Origin: Cyanidioschyzon merolae
Lineage: Eukaryota
Length of the DNA stretch: 64,000 nucleotides
Assembly: GCA_000091205.1 (NCBI GenBank)
Contig: AP006500.2
Reading direction: 5' to 3' (one strand)
In this document: positions 658-56,839 of the stretch, in pieces
Position numbering within the stretch: position 1 is the stretch's first letter
How the letters are laid out: each line of letters starts with the position of its first letter
Translations under genes and position numbers: made by a program
Notes under the pieces: generated by a model
Databases searched by the model: none
What the model was told of the DNA's origin: nothing
Seen by the model: only the letters and a program-made list of their open reading frames with translations

Positions 658-1791
658 ATCGCTCGCTCGGTAGAGCAGAGACGTATCCCAGAGCGGCTCC
701 GAACAAAACAGGCAGGTAGTTCGCAGTCTCCTGCGTACCGAGTCGCGCGAGGGCAGCAGTGCCTTGCACGTGCGCGCTGTACTGAACATGCTGTCTCAAA
801 AAGAGCGCTTCGCTTTCGTGCGCTTTGGCAACGAGTGGATGCCAACCTTTGGTAAGACCTTTCGTTGGTGCATAGCTGAGGAATGATGCGTGCTTGTGCT
901 GTTATCAGCACTAAAGATTTGTCCTGTTTATGGACACGTCTGTTGACGTCGTGACGCGGACGGTCGTCTGTGAAGCGCGACGAATGCAGTAACGTGCACC
1001 GGAAATGAACCAGAGGTGATGCACCACTGGTAAATGAGTCAACACTGGTTCAGTAGGCTTGCTGAAAGAGGAATGAAGAGGACAACGTGCAGAGCGTGCT
1101 GCTGAAGCGTCGCATGGCTTACCGTGCAGAGTATCAGCACGCGCACTGCGGTACCAGTGGCACGCATGATTCGCGAAGCGTTCTGGAGTGCAGGAAACTT
1201 CGCTGTGGACTAAAGAACAACCAGGTCATGAATGCTGACGTACGCGTGCACCCTCAGACGTATTCTCAAGCAATCACTGCGGAGGAGGCGCGATAAAACA
1301 AAAGAAGCAAGTCTCGGTTATCGTCCTCCAGCTGCACTCGACAGAAACGCATCTGAAAGGTGCGCTTCGGCGTCGTCGGGTGTACGCTCCGGTGCGTCTA
1401 GCGCCCGTCCAGGCGGCCAGTGTAGAGTCGATGCCTGCGAGCACACGGCAATACGGTTGCATGCGTCAGCGTTATATCATGAAATGTAGACACTGGCGTG
1501 TCTCTGGGTGACAACTGCAGCGGTGGTGCATTGAGCGTCGCGGCTGACACCCACAGGGTAACTGGATAGGCGAGTCTCCTTCTAGTAGCGTACGTGCGCA
1601 TCTTGGTAGTGCTTGAAATCGTGCACGGACGTGCACTGGTGCTTCGACGAGAAAGCACCTCGCCAGAGATGGCGAATCAGAAAATGCTACCGCTGCCACC
1701 GCCGGAGACCAATTGTGCTTTTCTGCTTCGCCTGTTCAAGGGCACGTGCCTTGTCTGCAAGCTGTATGGTCAGGTATATCGAATCATGGAT

Positions 1792-1810
1792 CACCACCAC
1801 CACCACCACC

Positions 1811-1843
<33 letters not shown>
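1792..1843. repeat. (CAC)~11(CAT)~6 compound trinucleotide microsatellite (would encode poly-His in one frame)
   Basis: Direct read. The paralogous tract at 14069-14132 is longer. Confidence 0.9.
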
Positions 1844-2172
1844 GTTCACCAATGGCCCAGGAAAATCATGCCCGGCATACGCATAGGCGGGATGGTAGCA
1901 TTGCTGAATCGCCGACTCGTGCCATACCGGTGCCTTGCTCCAGGCGAGCGTTCAACGCACGCTCTCTTGCTCAATCATACTTTTTCGTCGCAAGTCTTCG
2001 GCATTTAAACACAGTGCCCACACGGAGCACGAATCGATTCGCTTTAAACTTCGCTCGATACACATAGCCGATAGACGCCCCCCAGGCACGAGACTTTTCC
2101 GGGTGTTGATCGAGACGTTCATGGCTCGGAGCGGAGCCTGCGCCCGCACACATGACTTGCGATGGAATCACA

Positions 2173-3109
2173 CCAAAGTGAGCCTGCCAGCTTCAATTGC
2201 CTCGCAATTTGACGTCCGAGGTCCGCTCGCAGTATCCCATGTCGGACATTCCAAAGTGAGCCTGCCAGCTTCATTTGCCTCGCAATATGACGTCCGAGGT
2301 CCGCTCGCAGTATCCCATGACGGACATTCCAAAGTGAGCCTGCCAGCTTCATTTGCCTCGCAATATGACGTCCGAGGTCCGCTCGCAGTATCCCATGTCG
2401 GACATTCCAAAGTGAGCCTGCCAGCTTCTATTGCCTCGCAATACGACGTCCGAGGTCCGCTCGCAGTATCCCATGACGGACATTCCAAAGTGAGCCTGCC
2501 AGCTTCATTTGCCTCGCAATATGACGTCCGAGGTCCGCTCGCAGTATCCCATGACGGACATTCCAAAGTGAGCCTGCCAGCTTCATTTGCCTCGCAATAT
2601 GACGTCCGAGGTCCGCTCGCAGTATCCCATGTCGGACATTCCAAAGTGAGCCTGCCAGCTTCTATTGCCTCGCAATACGACGTCCGAGGTCCGCTCGCAG
2701 TATCCCATGACGGACATTCCAAAGTGAGCCTGCCAGCTTCATTTGCCTCGCAATATGACGTCCGAGGTCCGCTCGCAGTATCCCATGACGGACATTCCAA
2801 AGTGAGCCTGCCAGCTTCATTTGCCTCGCAATATGACGTCCGAGGTCCGCTCGCAGTATCCCATGACGGACATTCCAAAGTGAGCCTGCCAGCTTCTATT
2901 GCCTCGCAATATGACGTCCGAGGTCCGCTCGCAGTATCCCATGTCGGACATTCCAAAGTGAGCCCGCCAGCTTCAATTGCTACGCAATACGACGTCCGAG
3001 GTCCGCTCGCAGTATCCCATGTCGGACATTCCAAAGTGAGCCCGCCAGCTTCTATTGCCTCGCAATACGACGTCCGAGGTCCGCTCGCAATATCCCATGT
3101 CGGACATTC
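2173..3109. repeat. 78-bp tandem repeat array, 12 units, with a 3-unit (234 bp) higher-order pattern in units 2-7
   Basis: Period counted directly (ccaaagtgagcctgccagcttcatttgcctcgcaatatgacgtccgaggtccgctcgcagtatcccatgacggacattc = 78 nt). 937 bp = 12.0 units. Variant positions (tcatttgcc/tctattgcc, caatatgac/caatacgac, atgacgg/atgtcgg) recur in a 3-unit cycle. Three frames are open across the array (ORFs 1935..3140 +, 2168..3184 -, 2119..2352 -), which argues for a stop-free repeat rather than a confident CDS. Confidence 0.9.
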
Positions 3110-5623
3110 GGCCCTGTTTCCCAAGTGGCGCTCAACGTAGACGCAGCACGAGCATCCGCACTCGAGCTCCGTCTGCGTCGCCATCTAGTCCTCCACAGGA
3201 AACGTGCAACATCGATTCCTGCACTCGCTGTACGCACAGGAGTCCAGCGTTTGCGTGCCACAGCACATCCAGCGCCACAGGCTTCCAGCAATCGACGCGA
3301 CCTGTTGGGTACTCCCTTTTCCAACTGGTCCAGGAGCTTTGCGAGTGCGCGCCCCTCGCCTCCGTCCAACCGAGTCCGTTGGTGGCCCCCCAGCGCCGTC
3401 TCACGGAATCCTGCCAAAGGCTGTGCGCATGCGCAGGTCAGACGCTCGTGCGCGCTCTGAGTTAAAAGTGGAAACCCATCCCACGCTGCTCGACACACTG
3501 CTCAGCGCGTTCACTTTCAGGTCCTGACGCAGTCATTCCGCCTCGTACTTCGCCGTATGCCATCCAAGGTGATGCGCGGCTCCCGATCATACCAAGTGCT
3601 GGACGCGCTGGGCAGCTCCGTCTGCTTGCCATTCAGGTCTTGGGCGGCGCCGTCCGCCTCATTTGCATACACGGGGACGACAAGGGCGCTCTTCAACCTC
3701 GGATCCACGCTCCCAACAGCGACTTTCTCCTCGTCTGCCTTGAACAGTTGAAAATGAGCCTCGTTGGTGACCCAGGTCACGCTTTCACGACGCCCATGCG
3801 TACTGGAGATCCGTCGGTATCCAAAGCCTCGCTACGCGCTGCACGCCATGCCTTCCATGGAGACTAGAAACATCTGAAGAAGCGCCGCCGACGCTTTTCG
3901 TGGACCTGTTCGAGTCCGTCATACTTGCGCGGAGACACCGGATCCTTCTTCGAATACTCCGGTACCTGGCGGAGCAGCACGGACAGCGACGCTTCACTCC
4001 GTATCCGTCTCTTCTTCGGGATCCAGATGCACTGGGTGGACGACGAGCGCCAAGCTCTCCCATACTCTGCTTGTATGCACGCTATCCTCTGTGATGCTTT
4101 TCGTGACCTCATGGGTCACGAGCACGCCCACGGAGTGCAGCGTGCGTTTCCGTTCGCTCCCGCGCACGACCAGGGCGCAGCAGCACAGCAGCTCTCGACC
4201 CCTGCATAGAAGAGAGTAAAGTCGTGGATTCGTCACAGAACGTTGTCTCGGAGGCGAACGACGCATCGACGGATCCGTGAGTGTCCACATGACCTTGGCG
4301 AGCAGACAAGTCGCCCTCGACTGGATGGAGTCGACGAGACCCAGCCCACACTAGGAGCCGTCCACGGCCGTGCGCAGCAGCGTGCGCCTTGGTCGCTTTT
4401 CAGTGGTGATTCGCGACGTCGTAGATTAACAGGACGGTAGAGTACCTGAAGAAGAAGAAGAAGGAGACACAGCAGAAGCCAAGGAGAGTTTCGTCGACTC
4501 GTGAGGCAACAAACGAGCAGGGCTTTCTCGCGAGCTGCAGACCATCACACCAAAACCCTCTCTGCTGCTAACGCCAACACCGTTCTCACTACGGCTGGTC
4601 TCCTGTTTATGACCAGAAGCTTGCCGCAATTTGAGCTCCCATATACACGCCAAGCATCGCTTCCAAATAAAGCCCCATCGACTTCGATGGACACCAGTCC
4701 GCCCTGTGATGAGCATTCGCATTGCCGTTCGGAATCGAACGCGTGGTACTCCACTCGCGACAGTCTCCCAGACAGGCGTGCTTGCTTTTCGTCATCCATC
4801 CGCGTCTTTTCGTCCCAGTTCGTATCGACAGCACAGAAACATCACGCCGTTTGGATTTCTCTCGGTAGGACGTCTCAGGGCACGCAAGCTTAGAAAGCGA
4901 CTGACGAGGCGACACTCGGGTAGAAAGTGCCGGAAAATTTCCGTTTTCGCTCGACAACGTTCATGATATCGGTGAGGATTCGGTTGGTTCACCCATGTGC
5001 TGACCGTGGAATGACTGACTTGTACATGTATGAGCTTTTCTTGCGAGCTCGTCCTGGCAGCATCAAGTCTCTCTGCGCCCGTTCTCCAATATCCAGCATA
5101 CACTCCGTCGGATGAAGACCTGCGACATCGATAAACGAAAACACCAGCGTGCTTGCTGGTACAAGGCACCCATGAATTCATGAATCTAAGTCTCTGAGTA
5201 TAACAATGCACAGGCGTACATATAAACATGAACGTGCCAAAGATCCGCGATGAGCGTCTAATCGGGAGGTTGCGTACGAGACGCACACCGCCCCGCCGAC
5301 GGCTGCTGCACCAGCAAGCTGGGTAGAAGGTCTTGACATGATTCAGGCGTGTTGCTGGTGCATCTGGCATTCGCCTCGAGGCCAAGTCTCCGTCGTAAAC
5401 GCGCGTAGATTTACAACCAACCCTGTCAACTCAAACGTGCGTGACCTGTATCGGAATCGTGTCCAACCTGGTATCATGCGTTTCTGCCCGCTCGCTCAAC
5501 GAGTCTCAGCAGCGCTTGAGAAGCCAGGTTGCATCGCGCAGCCATATGACCTGCAATCAAGTAACACGCTACGTTTCCCGAATGGTCATCATCAGGGCAA
5601 TGGATGCAGTGCCTGTCTCGTAT

Positions 5624-13950: not shown

Positions 13951-14068
13951 CTCGGAGACGCTCGACACGTATGCATATCGTCAAGCGTCGTGCGTGGGCA
14001 CTTACATTGAAAAGAATCTCCGTTGCTTCTGCATGTCAATGTACGGTCAGGTATGTCGAATCATGGAT

Positions 14069-14084
14069 CACCACCACCACCACC

Positions 14085-14132
<48 letters not shown>
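14069..14132. repeat. (CAC)~11(CAT)~10 compound microsatellite, longer allele of the tract at 1792-1843
   Basis: Direct read. Confidence 0.9.
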
Positions 14133-14461
14133 GTTCACCAATGGCCCAGGAAAATCATGCCCGGCATACGCATAGGCGGGATGGTAGCATTGCTGAATCG
14201 CCGACTCGTGCCATACCGGTGCCTTGCTCCAGGCGAGCGTTCAACGCACGCTCTCTTGCTCAATCATACTTTTTCGTCGCAAGTCTTCGGCATTTAAACA
14301 CAGTGCCCACACGGAGCACGAATCGATTCGCTTTAAACTTCGCTCGATACATATAGCCGATAGACGCCCCCCAGGCACGAGACTTTTCCGGGTGTTGATC
14401 GAGACGTTCATGGCTCGGAGCGGAGCCTGCGCCCGCACACATGAATTGCGATGGAATCACA

Positions 14462-15008
14462 CCAAAGTGAGCCTGCCAGCTTCATTTGCCTCGCAATATG
14501 ACGTCCGAGGTCCGCTCGCAGTATCCCATGACGGACATTCCAAAGTGAGCCTGCCAGCTTCATTTGCCTCGCAATATGACGTCCGAGGTCCGCTCGCAGT
14601 ATCCCATGACGGACATTCCAAAGTGAGCCTGCCAGCTTCATTTGCCTCGCAATATGACGTCCGAGGTCCGCTCGCAGTATCCCATGACGGACATTCCAAA
14701 GTGAGCCTGCCAGCTTCATTTGCCTCGCAATATGACGTCCGAGGTCCGCTCGCAGTATCCCATGACGGACATTCCAAAGTGAGCCTGCCAGCTTCATTTG
14801 CCTCGCAATATGACGTCCGAGGTCCGCTCGCAGTATCCCATGTCGGACATTCCAAAGTGAGCCTGCCAGCTTCAATTGCTACGCAATACGACGTCCGAGG
14901 TCCGCTCGCAGTATCCCATGTCGGACATTCCAAAGTAAGCCTGCCAGCTTCTATTGCCTCGCAATTTGACGTCCGAGGTCCGCTCGCAGTATCCCATGTC
15001 GGACATTC
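14462..15008. repeat. 78-bp tandem repeat array, 7 units (5 identical units plus 2 variant terminal units)
   Basis: Same 78-nt unit as 2173-3109. 547 bp = 7.0 units. The translated ORF 14224..15039 shows 5 identical 26-aa units followed by the IATQYD...V and IASQFD...V variant units that also terminate array I. Confidence 0.9.
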
Positions 15009-17944
15009 GGCCCTGTTTCCCAAGTGGCGCTCAACGTAGACGCAGCACGAGCATCCGCACTCGAGCTCCGTCTGCGTCGCCATCTAGTCCTCCACAGGAA
15101 ACGTGCAACATCGATTCCTGCACTCGCTGTACGCACAGGAGTCCAGCGTTTGCGTGCCACAGCACATCCAGCGCCACAGGCTTCCAGCAATCGACGCGAC
15201 CTGTTGGGTACTCCCTTTTCCAACTGGTCCAGGAGCTTTGCGAGTGCGCGCCCCTCGCCTCCGTCCAACCGAGTCCGTTGGTGGCCCCCCAGCGCCGTCT
15301 CACGGAATCCTGCCAAAGGCTGTGCGCATGCGCAGGTCAGACGCTCGTGCGCGCTCTGAGTTAAAGGTGGAAACCCATCCCACGCTGCTCGACACACTGC
15401 TCAGCACGTTCACTTTCAGGTCCTGACGAAGTCATTACGACTCGTACTTCGCCGTATGCCATCCAGGGTGATGCGCGGCTCCCGATCATACCAAGTGCTG
15501 GACGCGCTGGGCAGCTCCGTCTGCTTGCCATTCAGGTCTTGGGCGGCGCCGTCCGCCTCATTTGCATACACGGGGACGACAAGGGCGCTCTTCAACCTCG
15601 GATCCACGCTCCCAACAGCGACTTTCTCCTCGTCTGCCTTGAACAGTTGAAAATGAGCCTCGTTGGTGACCCAGGTCACGCTTTCACGACGCCCATGCGT
15701 ACTGGAGATCCGTCGGTATCCAAAGCCTCGCTACGCGCTGCACGCCATGCCTTCCATGGAGACTAGAAACATCTGAAGAAGCGCCGCCGACGCTTTTCGT
15801 GGACCTGTTCGAGTCCGTCATACTTGCGCGGAGACACCGGATCCTTCTTCGAATACTCCGGTACCTGGCGGAGCAGCACGGACAGCGACGCTTCACTCCG
15901 TATCCGTCTCTTCTTCGGGATCCAGATGCACTGGGTGGACGACGAGCGCCAAGCTCTCCCATACTGTACTTGTATGCACGCTATCCTCTGTGATGCTTTT
16001 CGTGACCTCATGGGTCACGAGCACGCCCACAGAGTGCAGCGTGCGTTTCCGTTCGCTCCCGCGCACGACCAGGGCGCAGCAGCACAGCAGCTCTCGACCC
16101 CTGTGCATAGAAGAGAGTAAAGTCGTGGATTCGTCACACAACGTTGTCTCGGAGGCGAACGACGCATCGACGGATCCGTGAGCGTCCACATGACCTTGGC
16201 GAGCAGACAAGTCGCCCTCGACTGGATGGAGTCGACGAGACCCAGCCCACACTAGGAGCCGTCCACGGCCGTGCGCAGCAGCGTGCGCCTTGGTCGCTTT
16301 TCAGTGGTGATTCGCGACGTCGTAGATTAACAGGACGGTAGAGTACCTGAAGAAGAAGAAGAAGAAGGAGACACAGCAGAAGCCAAGGAGAGTTTCATCG
16401 ACTCGTGAGGCAACAAACGAGCCGGGCTTTCTCGCGAGCTGCAGACCATCGCACCAAAACCCTCTCTGCTGCTAACGCCAACACCGTTCTCACTACGGAT
16501 GGTCTCCTGTTTATGACCAGAAGCTTGCCGCAATTTGAGCTCCCATATATACGCCAAGCATCGCTTCCAAAGAAAGCCCCATCGACTTCGATGAACACCA
16601 GTCCGCCCTGTGATGAGCATTCGCATTGCCGTTCGGAATCGAACGCGTGGTACTCCACTCGCGACAGTCTCCCAGACAGGCGTGCTTGCTTTTCGTCATC
16701 CATCCGCGTCTTTTCGTCCCAGTTCGTATCGACAGCACAGAAACATCACGCCGTTTGGATTTCTCTCGGTAGGACGTCTCAGGGCACGCAAGCTTAGAAA
16801 GCGACTGACGAGGCGACACTCGGGTAGAAAGTGCCGGAAAATTTCCGTTTTCGCTCGACAACGTTCATGATATCGGTGAGGATTCGGTTGGTTCACCCAT
16901 GTGCTGACCGTGGAATGACTGACTTGTACATGTATGAGCTTTTCTTGCGAGCTCGTCCTGGCAGCATCAAGTCTCTCTGCGCCCGTTCTCCAATATCCAG
17001 CGTACACTCCGTCGGATGAAGACCTGCGACATCGATAAACGAAAACACCAGCGTGCTTGCTGGTACAAGGCACCCATGAATTCATGAATCTAAGTCTCCG
17101 TAACGACACCAGCTGTGCACAGACATGCAACGACGGGTGCGCAGGGGGAAACCCCGCCTCGCGTAGTGGGCACTGGAAGCTCGCAAGCAGCGCGAGCCCC
17201 ACGTTGCTGTGCTTGTATCGCTTGCGTTGCTCGCAGGTTGTCGTTTATCTTACCAAAGTACGCTGTTTGCACAGCGTGACGCTGATCGCTTATGAGGCAG
17301 CGAGTGCAACATACCACGCACAGGAGAGCAGCGCGTAATGACTCGAAACGACATGATCTCGCGCGTGCGTTGCAAGGGCGTTAAAAACCCGTCGGTCAGC
17401 GCTTTCGAAACAAGGTCTTGGTACTGGCATGCCAGGGTCACTGGTCCTGTGCGCAGCAACCAAGGCATAGCAGTTGCAACTCTACGGGAATGCATCTTTC
17501 GTCTTGAATACCCGAGGATGCTCGCAGCTGGAGAACGTCAGGCATCAGCGCATCGTGTTTCGAGCATGTTTTCCTGGTGCAGAATAGATGCATCGGACGA
17601 AAGGCTTTGTGGAAGCTTATCGTTCTTCGCGTGTCCAGGAAGGACACCTCAACTTCTTGGCAAATACTTTGACGCGTCACACACCTTAAGGCGCCTAGCA
17701 ATACGCCACGCTCCATCGCCTGTGCAATGGCATTCGTGCAGTGACAACGCGCTGAACTGAGAGCGGCGCACCTCCAGGGGCCTGACCTCTCGACGGTTGC
17801 GTCCGAAAAGCGTCCGCTATCAACGTGTGCTGCGATGTCAATGCAGATATCGAGAAGGCTCTGGGCATATCCAAAAAGGAGACGCGCATTTGCTGGTGCT
17901 TTTCATTGTACCTAGTCGATGGAGTCAGAGTGCCCAGTCGCGCT

Positions 17945-42284: not shown

Positions 42285-43718
42285 TCAGCGGCGATGCATC
42301 CGTGTCGTAGTTTCCGTTGCAGCAGACAACATATCTGCGCGCATTTTCGCTAAAAACGGCAGAAAGCGCTTCACGTATTGCGATTCCCACTGCCACGTGG
42401 GATCCGTCGCGCAAATGCGCATGACATTCTCTCGATAGCGTTCTTGGTGACGCTTTACCTGTATGATGGACGACACCAAACTGGACAAGTCGGTGAATGC
42501 GGTACCCATCATCGCACTTGAAGGTGCTCCAGAGGCATCCAACTCGCCATCGAGCCGCTGAAGCGGCAGATCCTTTTCCAAGCACGGATACGCATAGGCG
42601 ATGACCGGCAGACCGCAGCCCCACATATCGAACACCTTCATCGGCAGATCCATTCCAGACGAGGATTGATGCATTGAAATACCGGCATCAGCACAAGAAA
42701 GCAGCTGTGCGTAGTCGTCTCTGCTCGGTAGCCAGAGTGCGTGCAGGCTCCAGCGCGTCAGGCCAAGCTGGGGCCAAAATCGCTCCACGTAAAACGAGCG
42801 CAACGGACCGCGTCCCGTAATGAAAAGACGCCCAGACCAGCCGTACTTTTTCTCTAAAAGCACCACTGCTTGAAAGAGAAGCTCCATGGGTTCATCTGGT
42901 GACCAGCTCGTCGCGCTGCAGAGCCAAACCTGGGCTATCGCGCTTTCGATCGCTTCATCCGTCCAATGGAAAACGCGACGACACAGGTCCCGGCGCCGGT
43001 GGTATCGCTGTTCGGTATCGAGCGCGCTCGACAAGAAGCGCTGCGTCCAGTCGCGTAACGGGCGGTCGGGAAGCACCAGCAACTTGCTCCGCTCAAGCGC
43101 CATCTCTGCGAGTATGTGCTCCCCGAGCGTACCAGTGACGGCGAGGTGTGCGTCCGCTACGCGCGCGCCAAGCAGGTACTCCAGACGCGCTGCAAGGGCG
43201 ACAGCGGAGCCTGGTGCCCGGTTGATGGCCATAATCGAGTGCGTCGTGTTGTGCCAGTCGAGTACGGCGATTGCACCCGGTCGCGCGCGGTGCCATCGCA
43301 GCCACGGTACCAACATCAAGGTCGGAAACGCGGGAGGGTTCTGCGCCACCAGGAGGTCCCACGGCGGTATATCATCGAACGCGCGACGCACGAGCCACAG
43401 TCGCGTCACGAGTGCACAGAACGCCCGCCAGGGGTAACTCAGACGGCGCCGCCAGCGTCGCGTTTGTTCGCCCGCGTGGACGGAAGTTGGCGTCGCGCGA
43501 GATAAAGACACAACACGAACTTGCGCGTTGTTCAGGTCGTCCACGTTGCCGTAGCCCAGCAGGGTCACCCGAAAGCCCTCCGCCGCTAAAGCTGAGGCGT
43601 GTGCAAGCATGCGCGGCGACTGCTCGAGCCGCCCCAGCACAAGCACCACCGCGTGCGGTGCCACCAGCTCCGAGTCGTCATGCTTTGCCTCTGGCAACCG
43701 CGCTGTCGACAGCGCCAT
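42285..43718 (-). CDS. ALG1: Chitobiosyldiphosphodolichol beta-1,4-mannosyltransferase (ALG1), ~478 aa
   Basis: HAVVLVLGRLEQSPRMLAHASALAAEGFRVTLLGY matches the ALG1 N-terminal signature (VLGDIGRSPRMQYHALSLA..G..V.L.GY). C-terminal GT1 motif SSSGMDLPMKVFDMWGCGLPVIAYAYPCLEKD matches [21 protein letters not shown]. The ORF track extends to 43970, but the extra 84 aa are Arg-rich and non-conserved, and overlap a tRNA-like element, so the start is called at MALSTARLPE (43718). Confidence 0.88.
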   Translation of the reverse strand: MALSTARLPEAKHDDSELVAPHAVVLVLGRLEQSPRMLAHASALAAEGFRVTLLGYGNVDDLNNAQVRVVSLSRATPTSVHAGEQTRRWRRRLSYPWRAFCALVTRLWLVRRAFDDIPPWDLLVAQNPPAFPTLMLVPWLRWHRARPGAIAVLDWHNTTHSIMAINRAPGSAVALAARLEYLLGARVADAHLAVTGTLGEHILAEMALERSKLLVLPDRPLRDWTQRFLSSALDTEQRYHRRRDLCRRVFHWTDEAIESAIAQVWLCSATSWSPDEPMELLFQAVVLLEKKYGWSGRLFITGRGPLRSFYVERFWPQLGLTRWSLHALWLPSRDDYAQLLSCADAGISMHQSSSGMDLPMKVFDMWGCGLPVIAYAYPCLEKDLPLQRLDGELDASGAPSSAMMGTAFTDLSSLVSSIIQVKRHQERYRENVMRICATDPTWQWESQYVKRFLPFLAKMRADMLSAATETTTRMHRR

Positions 43719-43748
43719 ACCCGCGGTACCGATGCGCAAAAATGCACC

Positions 43749-43830
43749 GTTCCTGGCGGGACTCGAACCCGCAGTCTTTCGATCGACTCTGTGGTATAGA
43801 AGTCGAATACGTTGTGGACCGAGATACGGG
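43749..43830 (-). other. tRNA-like element: canonical T-arm (GCGGG-TTCGAGT-CCCGC) plus 3' acceptor-like strand followed by an oligo-T (TTTTT) tract; no complete cloverleaf could be folded
   Basis: Minus-strand read ...agagtcgatcgaaagactGCGGGTTCGAGTCCCGCcaggaacggtgcaTTTTTgcg. The T-stem/loop is textbook (G53 T54 T55 C56 G57 A58 ... C61), with oligo-T 13 nt downstream. A matching 5' acceptor strand (gttcctg) is found only ~190 nt upstream (revcomp of 43951-43957), too far for a standard tRNA. Confidence 0.35.
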
Positions 43831-44183
43831 GGCGCGAATCGCCTCCGGGCGTCCCCTGTGGCTCGGTTATCCACGGCGCGCGCGCAGCAACGCCCAGCCT
43901 TCGATGCTGCAAACTGCTCAGCGATACATCGGACGTCACGCTTTACGCCACAGGAACGGGGTGTCACCAACTAACATTTGATCAAAATTACTATATAAAG
44001 AGAAGCCATTCCGGGGATCGCTCAGATTGATTGGCGATGGTGCGTGCTCGGCCTCGCGGAGCGATCGGCGGCGGTGCCTGGCATGTGCGATCCGCAGCCG
44101 CGATTCGCGATCGCAGCGCGCCTCTTGAGCTGCTTGCTTGCTTGCTTGCTTTCGCGTCGCTGCCAGGTAACGCAACTGCTAAC

Positions 44184-56240: not shown

Positions 56241-56430
56241 TTCTCGCGTATGAGAGATGCATGGCCAAGTTCCAGCACCGGCCGCCGTCACGAGTAGCGT
56301 AGACGTTTATGAACACACTGTGCAGATTTTAGACCAGGACAAGCGTACGTTGCCCCGCGACGTTGCCTGTACAGCCTATTCTGCACGCAGTACGCGCATG
56401 CTCGCGTGCATGCGTACGCATTGCCACGCG

Positions 56431-56462
56431 CACACACACGTACACACACACACACACACACA
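56431..56462. repeat. (CA)n microsatellite inside repeat copy B flank
   Basis: Direct read: cacacacacgtacacacacacacacacacacac. Confidence 0.85.
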
Positions 56463-56839
56463 CTGGTAAAGACCTCATCATCTGCATGCGTCTGAAGGTA
56501 CACAGAACGTCGACGAGCTCCCGCTGCCGTCCGCAGTACCAACGATCCCCGCAACCGTGGATTGTCTTGGGTATTTTGTCGCTGGAAGCGCGAGTCACGC
56601 TTGTTGCGTCCCGATTCCCGACCCGATGTCGGGAATGTGAAAGCACTCGAATGCGATCCAGAGGAGCCGACGGTGAACCTGTCGTGTGCAGAATCGTTCA
56701 ACTTGGGAAATGAACCCGCCTCGGATGATTGCGAAACTCTGCAGTCCATGCGATAGCCACAAGTTGGAATGGCACCATAACTGGCAACGGAGATGCATAC
56801 CGGTGCGCAGCAGACCTGATCGCCATGCGTCCATGACGG

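Follow-up and report, generated by a model that had tools for sequence, protein, structure and literature searches.

Between the genes ALG1 and FNR in Cyanidioschyzon merolae 10D, a red alga, lies a sequence that reads like half a tRNA gene, and it raises the question of what such a half is doing there. It belongs to a stretch of 64,000 nucleotides (nt) of contig AP006500.2 (assembly GCA_000091205.1), hereafter the window. An initial annotation had read a T-stem and loop, a 7-nt acceptor strand, a discriminator position and a TTTTT run 13 nt later, all of them present on the minus strand, and had proposed three explanations: a tRNA gene with multiple or unusual introns as in red algae, a tail of a short interspersed element (SINE) or a pseudogene, or chance. 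The first of these is borne out. Removing three introns yields a tRNA-Arg(UCU), and C. merolae is known to possess such genes (PMC3728597, available text). We conclude, with a probability of roughly 93%, that positions 43957-43748 on the minus strand are the single nuclear tRNA-Arg(UCU) gene of C. merolae 10D, a colinear, "highly disrupted" gene of four exons and three introns. The multi-intron gene thus explains the puzzling half-tRNA.

Architecture of the disrupted gene

Of the four T-arm-like hairpins in the window, this T-arm alone has, in the 300 nt upstream, a sequence exactly complementary to its 3' acceptor strand. The B-box-like sequence GGTTCGANTCC likewise occurs without mismatch at this locus only in the 64 kb. 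The complementary 5' strand, GTTCCTG, is indeed the sole candidate, as the initial annotation had noted, and lies 185 nt before the T-arm. Since the 5' acceptor strand is upstream, this exon order rules out a permuted gene: the 5' acceptor and the start of the D-arm precede the T-arm and 3' acceptor, and no complement of the 3' acceptor is found within 150 nt downstream. An exon-anchored parse, numbered in window coordinates on the minus strand, gives a gene body of 210 nt with exons of 15, 6, 16 and 36 nt and introns of 69, 55 and 13 nt:

43957-43943, minus strand: exon 1, GTTCCTGTGGCGTAA (GTTCCTG TG GCGT AA), 15 nt; 5' acceptor, U8, G9, D-stem 5' strand, A14 and A15
43957-43951, minus strand: 5' acceptor GTTCCTG, exact complement of the 3' acceptor strand
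43942-43874, minus strand: intron 1, 69 nt; splits the D-loop between positions 15 and 16
43873-43868, minus strand: exon 2, the micro-exon TGGATA, 6 nt; D-loop positions 16-21, including G18 and G19
43867-43813, minus strand: intron 2, 55 nt; splits the D-loop between positions 21 and 22
43812-43797, minus strand: exon 3, ACGTATTCGACTTCTA (ACGT A TTCGA CTTCTA), 16 nt; D-stem 3' strand, A26, anticodon-stem 5' strand, C32 U33 U34 C35 U36 A37
43796-43784, minus strand: intron 3, 13 nt, at canonical position 37/38; appears in the Rfam tRNA alignment as a loop insertion
43783-43748, minus strand: exon 4 (A38 TCGAA AGACT GCGGG TTCGAGT CCCGC CAGGAAC G), 36 nt; anticodon-stem 3' strand, variable loop, B-box-like T-arm, 3' acceptor and G73
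43772-43756, minus strand: T-stem and loop, read directly from the sequence; GCGGG (43772-43768), TTCGAGT (43767-43761) and CCCGC (43760-43756)
43755-43749, minus strand: 3' acceptor strand CAGGAAC, followed by G73 at 43748

The claim that no D-arm or anticodon arm could be found in the 50 nt before the T-arm holds only in part. A complete anticodon arm is there (43807-43778): TTCGA at 43807-43803, the loop CTTCTA followed, beyond the intron, by A, and TCGAA at 43782-43778. It was missed because the 13-nt intron splits its loop. The D-arm is also present, divided into three pieces, and its loop, once completed by exon 2, reads AATGGATA.

Standard tools pass over the gene because its D-arm is split by 124 nt of introns. 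With default settings ARAGORN calls no tRNA anywhere in the window, and none of the Rfam families attains its gathering score there. A relaxed Rfam search does find a tRNA model, at 43748-43833 on the minus strand (23.1 bits, E = 0.035 in a 901-nt search; gathering score 29), and aligns a perfect anticodon arm, TTCGA / CTTCTA, insert, A / TCGAA. From this alignment follow the anticodon TCT (arginine) and the 13-nt intron at 37/38, which leaves just the 5' acceptor strand and the D-arm to be accounted for. Lower-threshold ARAGORN runs returned models for Asn, Leu, Ser and Arg(tcg) that are mutually inconsistent and not conserved in the orthologues described below, and we rejected them. Genes of this kind are thus missed entirely by standard tRNA finders and by the Rfam gathering threshold, and are translated through by prokaryote-style gene callers.

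When the three introns are removed in silico, the remaining 73-mer GTTCCTGTGGCGTAATGGATAACGTATTCGACTTCTAATCGAAAGACTGCGGGTTCGAGTCCCGCCAGGAACG is called tRNA-Arg(tct) by ARAGORN with default settings, as are the spliced products of all four lineages considered below. Its minimum-energy fold is exactly the cloverleaf, at -24.0 kcal/mol, so that the earlier description of the locus as lacking a foldable cloverleaf is right for the unspliced DNA and wrong for the spliced RNA. All core nucleotides are in place in the spliced form (U8, G10, A14, G18, G19, A21, U33, A37, U54, U55, C56 and A58), and the locus shares with the disrupted tRNA genes of C. merolae the property of yielding a canonical cloverleaf after intron removal.

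This gene has been described before. Soma et al. (Sci Rep 2013; PMC3728597, available text) count 43 nuclear tRNA genes in C. merolae, 27 of them intron-containing and called "highly disrupted", and give as the longest tRNA intron one of 69 bp in the D-loop of tRNA-Arg(TCT). Intron 1, which we derived independently, is 69 nt long. The 10D nuclear genome, the anticodon TCT and the 69-nt D-loop intron all agree, and our result is therefore a rediscovery of the published gene.

Orthologues, splice-site motifs and competing readings

Orthologous loci were reached by protein searches with FNR and ALG1, which led to syntenic contigs:

L001 and L013: Joint Genome Institute (JGI) metagenomes, ALG1-FNR locus
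L003: ENA metagenome, ALG1-FNR locus
L012: Cyanidiococcus yangmingshanensis, GCA_026122185.1, ALG1-FNR locus

In each of them the tRNA gene lies between ALG1 and FNR on the ALG1 strand. Cyanidioschyzon, Cyanidiococcus and the two uncultured cyanidiophycean lineages have the same 6-nt micro-exon and the same three intron positions. Alignment of the unspliced loci with MAFFT misplaced the introns and the TGGATA block in L001, and the exon-anchored parse was used instead. Between lineages the exons are 85-100% identical and the introns 45-65% (intron 1 alone 49-65%), exon 1 being the same at every position in L012 and L001. Short blocks stand conserved amid diverged sequence: TGGCGKAA, TGGATA and ACGTWTTCGACTTCTA. 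The whole of exon 2 is invariant in the four lineages, although both adjoining introns diverge. Intron 3 measures 13-15 nt in the orthologues. The segment AATGG is also unchanged in two ordinary eukaryotic tRNA-Arg(UCU) genes (L007 and L009).

These two genes and the four lineages make up the alignment of spliced sequences, in which 99% of the cells are base-paired, against 37-50% when the partners are slid, and eight pairs have changed on both sides. In the acceptor stem of L003 the distant 5' strand is GCCCTCG and the 3' strand CGGGGGC; relative to the window, three pairs have changed on both sides (2-71, 3-70 and 6-67, each from U-A to C-G) and one pair on one side. The changes on both sides prove the long-range pairing of the 5' and 3' acceptor strands. 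Near-invariant exons beside diverged introns, together with compensatory changes, are the signature of purifying selection on the spliced RNA.

The intron boundaries can be read from the same comparison. By the general rule for bulge-helix-bulge (BHB) motifs, the endonuclease cuts 2 nt after each strand of a 4-bp central helix. Intron 1 has GCGT/gcgc as its central helix, bulges AA|a and cg|T, and an inner helix of 5 bp, gcgtg/cgcgc; in L003 the central helix has become GCGG/ccgc, where the T13:g pair is replaced by G13-c, a compensating change. A central helix GGCG/CGCC, which would give a 6-nt D-loop, was considered and rejected; GCGT/gcgc is preferred because it yields AATGGATA, carries the compensatory change in L003 and agrees with the D-loops of ordinary tRNA-Arg(UCU) genes. 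In intron 2 the bulges are TA|a and ca|A, the central helix is TGGA/tcca, and the inner helix next to it, of 5 bp, is ccgag/ctcgg, which in Cyanidiococcus is ccaag/cttgg, a compensatory exchange of g-c for a-t; the unconstrained local fold of this intron is a strict BHB in all four lineages. Both D-loop motifs have a stability of about -25 kcal/mol. Intron 3 has a relaxed motif, in which the anticodon stem serves as outer helix and three of the four central pairs are present. The junctions are accordingly BHB or, for intron 3, BHB-like, as in the disrupted tRNA genes of C. merolae (motif definition from the available text of PMC3728597). Folded free of constraints, the precursor of 210 nt forms the T-arm and the long-range acceptor stem, together with the central helix of each D-loop intron and the 3-nt bulges at their 5' splice sites.

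A different tRNA was proposed by intron-tolerant ARAGORN (-i0,300), which over 43958-43747 on the minus strand pairs the distant ends in an 8-bp acceptor stem and fits between them a tRNA-Asp(AUC), reported as tRNA-Asp(atc), with one 137-nt intron at 38/39, using a D-arm-like GCGT-AAAGCGTG-ACGT directly after the 5' acceptor. This run confirms that the two ends are able to pair, but the body of its model is implausible. The D-loop AAAGCGTG of this model has neither G18 nor G19, its anticodon stem is four pairs and a mismatch, and its closing ACGT belongs to intron 1 and has no conserved counterpart in L001, L012 or L003. The model also ignores both the perfect, conserved TTCGA/CTTCTAA/TCGAA arm and the invariant TGGATA, and we know of no cytosolic tRNA set that uses an Asp anticodon with A34. 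We consider it extremely unlikely.

A closer relative of our model would have two introns, one of about 130 nt in the D-loop and the one at 37/38, with TGGATA a structural element inside the former. The 69-bp D-loop intron is the only one that the available text of the published account mentions for this gene (PMC3728597), which is compatible with such an arrangement. At about 130 nt, such an intron is at odds with the published 69-bp maximum, and the product would be without G18 and G19. TGGATA, moreover, is invariant and has good BHB motifs on both sides, and cutting at these yields the D-loop AATGGATA. A two-intron gene is therefore very unlikely, and we retain the model with three.

Could the locus be a dead remnant, that is, a pseudogene or a tRNA-derived SINE tail related to the dispersed repeats of the window and without function? 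The silence of the default tRNA finders at the locus would fit such an origin, as would the large repeats present in the window. Searched with blastn, however, no part of the 281-nt region has a second copy in the window, so it is not a dispersed element there. The C. merolae-like matches of a metagenome pattern scan all come from this one locus, and the synteny in four lineages, the near-invariant exons, the diverged introns and the compensatory changes are not those of a decaying copy. The anticodon is also needed, as the 43 genes form a sufficient repertoire (PMC3728597, available text, where Gly(CCC) is the only case mentioned of two genes with an identical mature tRNA). A remnant is thus extremely improbable.

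As for the repeats themselves, a sequence of about 3 kb is present twice (1763-5194 and 14040-17098, 97-99% identity, some 12 kb apart), each copy holding a 78-bp tandem array (2173-3109 and 14462-15008). It is probably the "dispersed repeat family" of the initial annotation, and neither copy shares sequence with the tRNA gene.

The metagenome scan yielded seven matches, namely four near-identical C. merolae-like loci, the two ordinary tRNA-Arg(UCU) genes and one chance match (L008); no new divergent orthologues came from it. The four C. merolae-like loci (L005, L006, L010 and L011, all JGI metagenomes) equal the window nearly base for base and have identical exons. They differ from it at a few positions upstream of the gene, and L010 and L011 share one G-to-T difference in intron 1. 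C. merolae-like populations are therefore present in those environmental samples.

The last of the three initial proposals was chance, which here would mean a fortuitous resemblance in the ALG1 coding sequence or its 5' leader. The region does lie inside a 561-amino-acid open reading frame (ORF), and JGI gene callers have extended ALG1 through it. The annotated ALG1 protein, by contrast, starts at 43718, its similarity between lineages is found only downstream of the tRNA, and conservation follows the RNA exons and helices rather than codons. Chance has a vanishingly small probability, the covariation and compensatory changes excluding it.

Several observations weigh against the three-intron tRNA-Arg(UCU) gene. 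At 23.1 bits the genomic match to Rfam RF00005 falls short of the gathering score of 29, folding of the precursor shows no significant gain in stability over shuffled sequence (z = -1.76), and L003 has a G13:A22 mismatch. The register of intron 1 can slip in a GC repeat, and in three lineages its free local fold is 1-3 kcal/mol better than the BHB-constrained one. The junction of intron 2 is ambiguous by 1 nt in either direction in the window, with the same product whichever is chosen, and the BHB motif of intron 3 is weak and unstable. Our identification with the published gene moreover draws on the organism, the anticodon and the 69-bp length rather than on exact junctions or intron count, and the experiments of Soma et al. 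cover Asn, Phe, Ile and Gly tRNAs, not Arg(UCU), in the available text (PMC3728597).

Expression signals and the ALG1 boundary

The gene is flanked by candidate signals for RNA polymerase III (Pol III) and, further out, by two protein-coding genes:

43999-43992, minus strand: TATA-like TTTATATA, -42 to -35 from tRNA position 1; putative TFIIIC-independent Pol III promoter
43742-43738, minus strand: TTTTT, 6 nt after G73 and 13 nt after the T-stem; putative Pol III terminator
42285-43718, minus strand: ALG1 (chitobiosyldiphosphodolichol beta-mannosyltransferase) coding sequence, 477 amino acids
44184-45212, plus strand: FNR coding sequence, 342 amino acids; the divergent neighbour, identical to BAM82330.1

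For C. merolae tRNA genes, a TATA-like sequence in the 50 bp upstream (PMC3728597, available text; PMC3978253) and a T-stretch downstream (PMC3728597, available text) have been described, and the two have been proposed to serve as a TFIIIC-independent Pol III promoter and terminator (PMC3728597, available text; PMC3978253). The window gene is arranged in this way: its TATA-like box lies no more than about 50 bp upstream, a T-stretch lies downstream, and the gene itself contains no run of four or more T. A motif CTTTAT(A/G)T is kept 30-43 nt upstream in the four lineages, the rest of the 70-nt flank being 51-60% identical, and runs of four or five T follow the gene in all orthologues; L003 has TTTTTT in intron 2. 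The position and conservation of TTTATATA suggest that it acts as the promoter.

Together with the published C. merolae pathway, the sequence suggests the following course. Pol III would start at the upstream TATA-like box without TFIIIC, the A-box region being divided among three exons and separated from the B box by about 190 nt, read through the 210-nt gene body and stop at TTTTT. The tRNA-splicing endonuclease (cmSen2, cmSen34, cmSen54) would then cut 2 nt after each strand of the central helices, and a ligase would join the exons. As in the order published for tRNA-Ile(UAU), the stable motifs of both D-loop introns would probably be processed ahead of the weak motif at 37/38. Formation of the D-stem would have to await the removal of intron 1, whose central helix takes up the D-stem's 5' strand. 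After CCA addition, the predicted product would be a 73-nt tRNA decoding AGA.

The annotated ALG1 protein (477 of 477 residues identical to BAM82329.1 of C. merolae 10D) starts at the ATG at 43718. The longer ORF, 42285-43970, would have 561 amino acids, 84 codons more, and the earlier suggestion that these codons are not coding is upheld. ALG1 is thereby corrected from 561 to 477 amino acids, and the ALG1-FNR spacer, measured between start codons, is 465 bp, close to the 460 bp estimated before. Similarity between the ALG1 proteins of the lineages begins only downstream of the tRNA gene, and the long ORF over it is an accident of GC-rich sequence. JGI gene calls run ALG1 through the tRNA gene in the same way (583 amino acids at 4082-5833 of L001, 574 for P0121), adding about 50-100 codons; these extensions are an annotation artefact of long open frames in GC-rich DNA. 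C. merolae 10D entries are present in both the FNR and the ALG1 protein clusters. From these identities the window comes from C. merolae 10D or from some strain with the same ALG1 and FNR proteins.

In the window the ALG1 ATG comes 19 nt after the T-stretch (43718-43742), and in L012 (4968-5003) and L001 (5510-5542) the ALG1 start comes 33 nt after G73, always on the same strand. This tight same-strand arrangement is found in all four lineages, with a partial exon 4 duplicate in between in L003. Because the tRNA gene ends so near the ALG1 start, the RNA polymerase II promoter or 5' leader of ALG1 must overlap the Pol III gene. The proposal of an old, actively maintained disrupted architecture and of a tRNA gene locked to ALG1, with possible functional coupling, seems to us rather unlikely. 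Were the gene so locked, a shared TATA element, a tRNA-mRNA co-transcript or regulation of ALG1 by Pol III occupancy would be conceivable.

The duplicate in L003 (5490-5545, minus strand) follows a complete tRNA-Arg(UCU) gene and its terminator in tandem. It consists of the tail of intron 3 (gaggag), the full exon 4 and a second T-stretch, without the 5' exons, and its variable loop is AGACT where the first copy has AGATT. It looks like a recent local duplication, and one may speculate that such duplicates are raw material for permuted or rearranged tRNA genes. Both L003 copies (the first at 5572-5607, minus strand) have the T-loop CTCGAGT, with C at position 54, where the other three lineages have TTCGAGT; U54 is near-universal in elongator tRNAs.

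Elsewhere in the window, sub-threshold Rfam matches to mir-297, mir-466 and sno_ZL1 (snoRNA ZL1) at 56389-56463 on the minus strand coincide with a (TG)n microsatellite, after which comes GC-rich palindromic sequence, and are almost certainly spurious.

Comparison with published and related tRNA genes

The tRNA-Arg(UCU) gene is already known and BHB-dependent multi-intron nuclear tRNA genes are published, so that the locus opens no new question. With the published C. merolae gene, compared by text only and in the available part of the article (PMC3728597), ours shares the BHB junctions, the upstream TATA-like box and the T-stretch, and no difference was found. Our comparison across lineages adds modest support to the published exon-intron model and shows that the architecture is common to Cyanidioschyzon and its Cyanidiococcus relatives. 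This conservation and the tight same-strand arrangement with ALG1 may be the sole points that go beyond the published accounts consulted.

The nearest experimentally dissected system is the tRNA-Ile(UAU) of C. merolae (PMC3728597, available text; PMC9602550), which likewise has three BHB-bounded introns, one of them at 37/38. In both genes the motifs of the ectopic introns are the more stable ones, and in tRNA-Ile(UAU) the ectopic introns are removed ahead of the 37/38 intron (PMC3728597, available text). The ectopic introns of tRNA-Ile(UAU) are in the D-stem and T-loop, whereas those of tRNA-Arg(UCU) are both in the D-loop (15/16 and 21/22) with a 6-nt exon between them. Unlike that of tRNA-Ile(UAU), the processing order proposed here for tRNA-Arg(UCU) is suggested by analogy.

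The permuted tRNA genes of C. merolae (Soma et al. 2007; PMC3978253) belong to the same genome and share the BHB-dependent machinery, the TATA-like promoter and the T-stretch. The exons of tRNA-Arg(UCU) are colinear, while the C. merolae tRNA-Arg(CCU) gene is permuted; being colinear, tRNA-Arg(UCU) needs no circular intermediate. The ordinary tRNA-Arg(UCU) genes L007 and L009 resemble it in mature sequence, with the D-arm TGGCG.AATGG, an identical anticodon arm TTCGA-CTTCTAA-TCGAA and an intron at 37/38; unlike the window gene, they have this intron alone and an intact intragenic A box.

Finally, the archaeal multi-intron tRNA genes with hBHBh' motifs (Crenarchaeota and Nanoarchaeota) also carry non-canonical introns bounded by two 3-nt bulges around a 4-bp helix, and are likewise cut 2 nt after each strand of the central helix. 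Unlike them, the tRNA-Arg(UCU) gene is nuclear and eukaryotic with Pol III signals, and its motifs are partly relaxed: intron 1 is without an outer exon-exon helix, and intron 3 has a weak motif.

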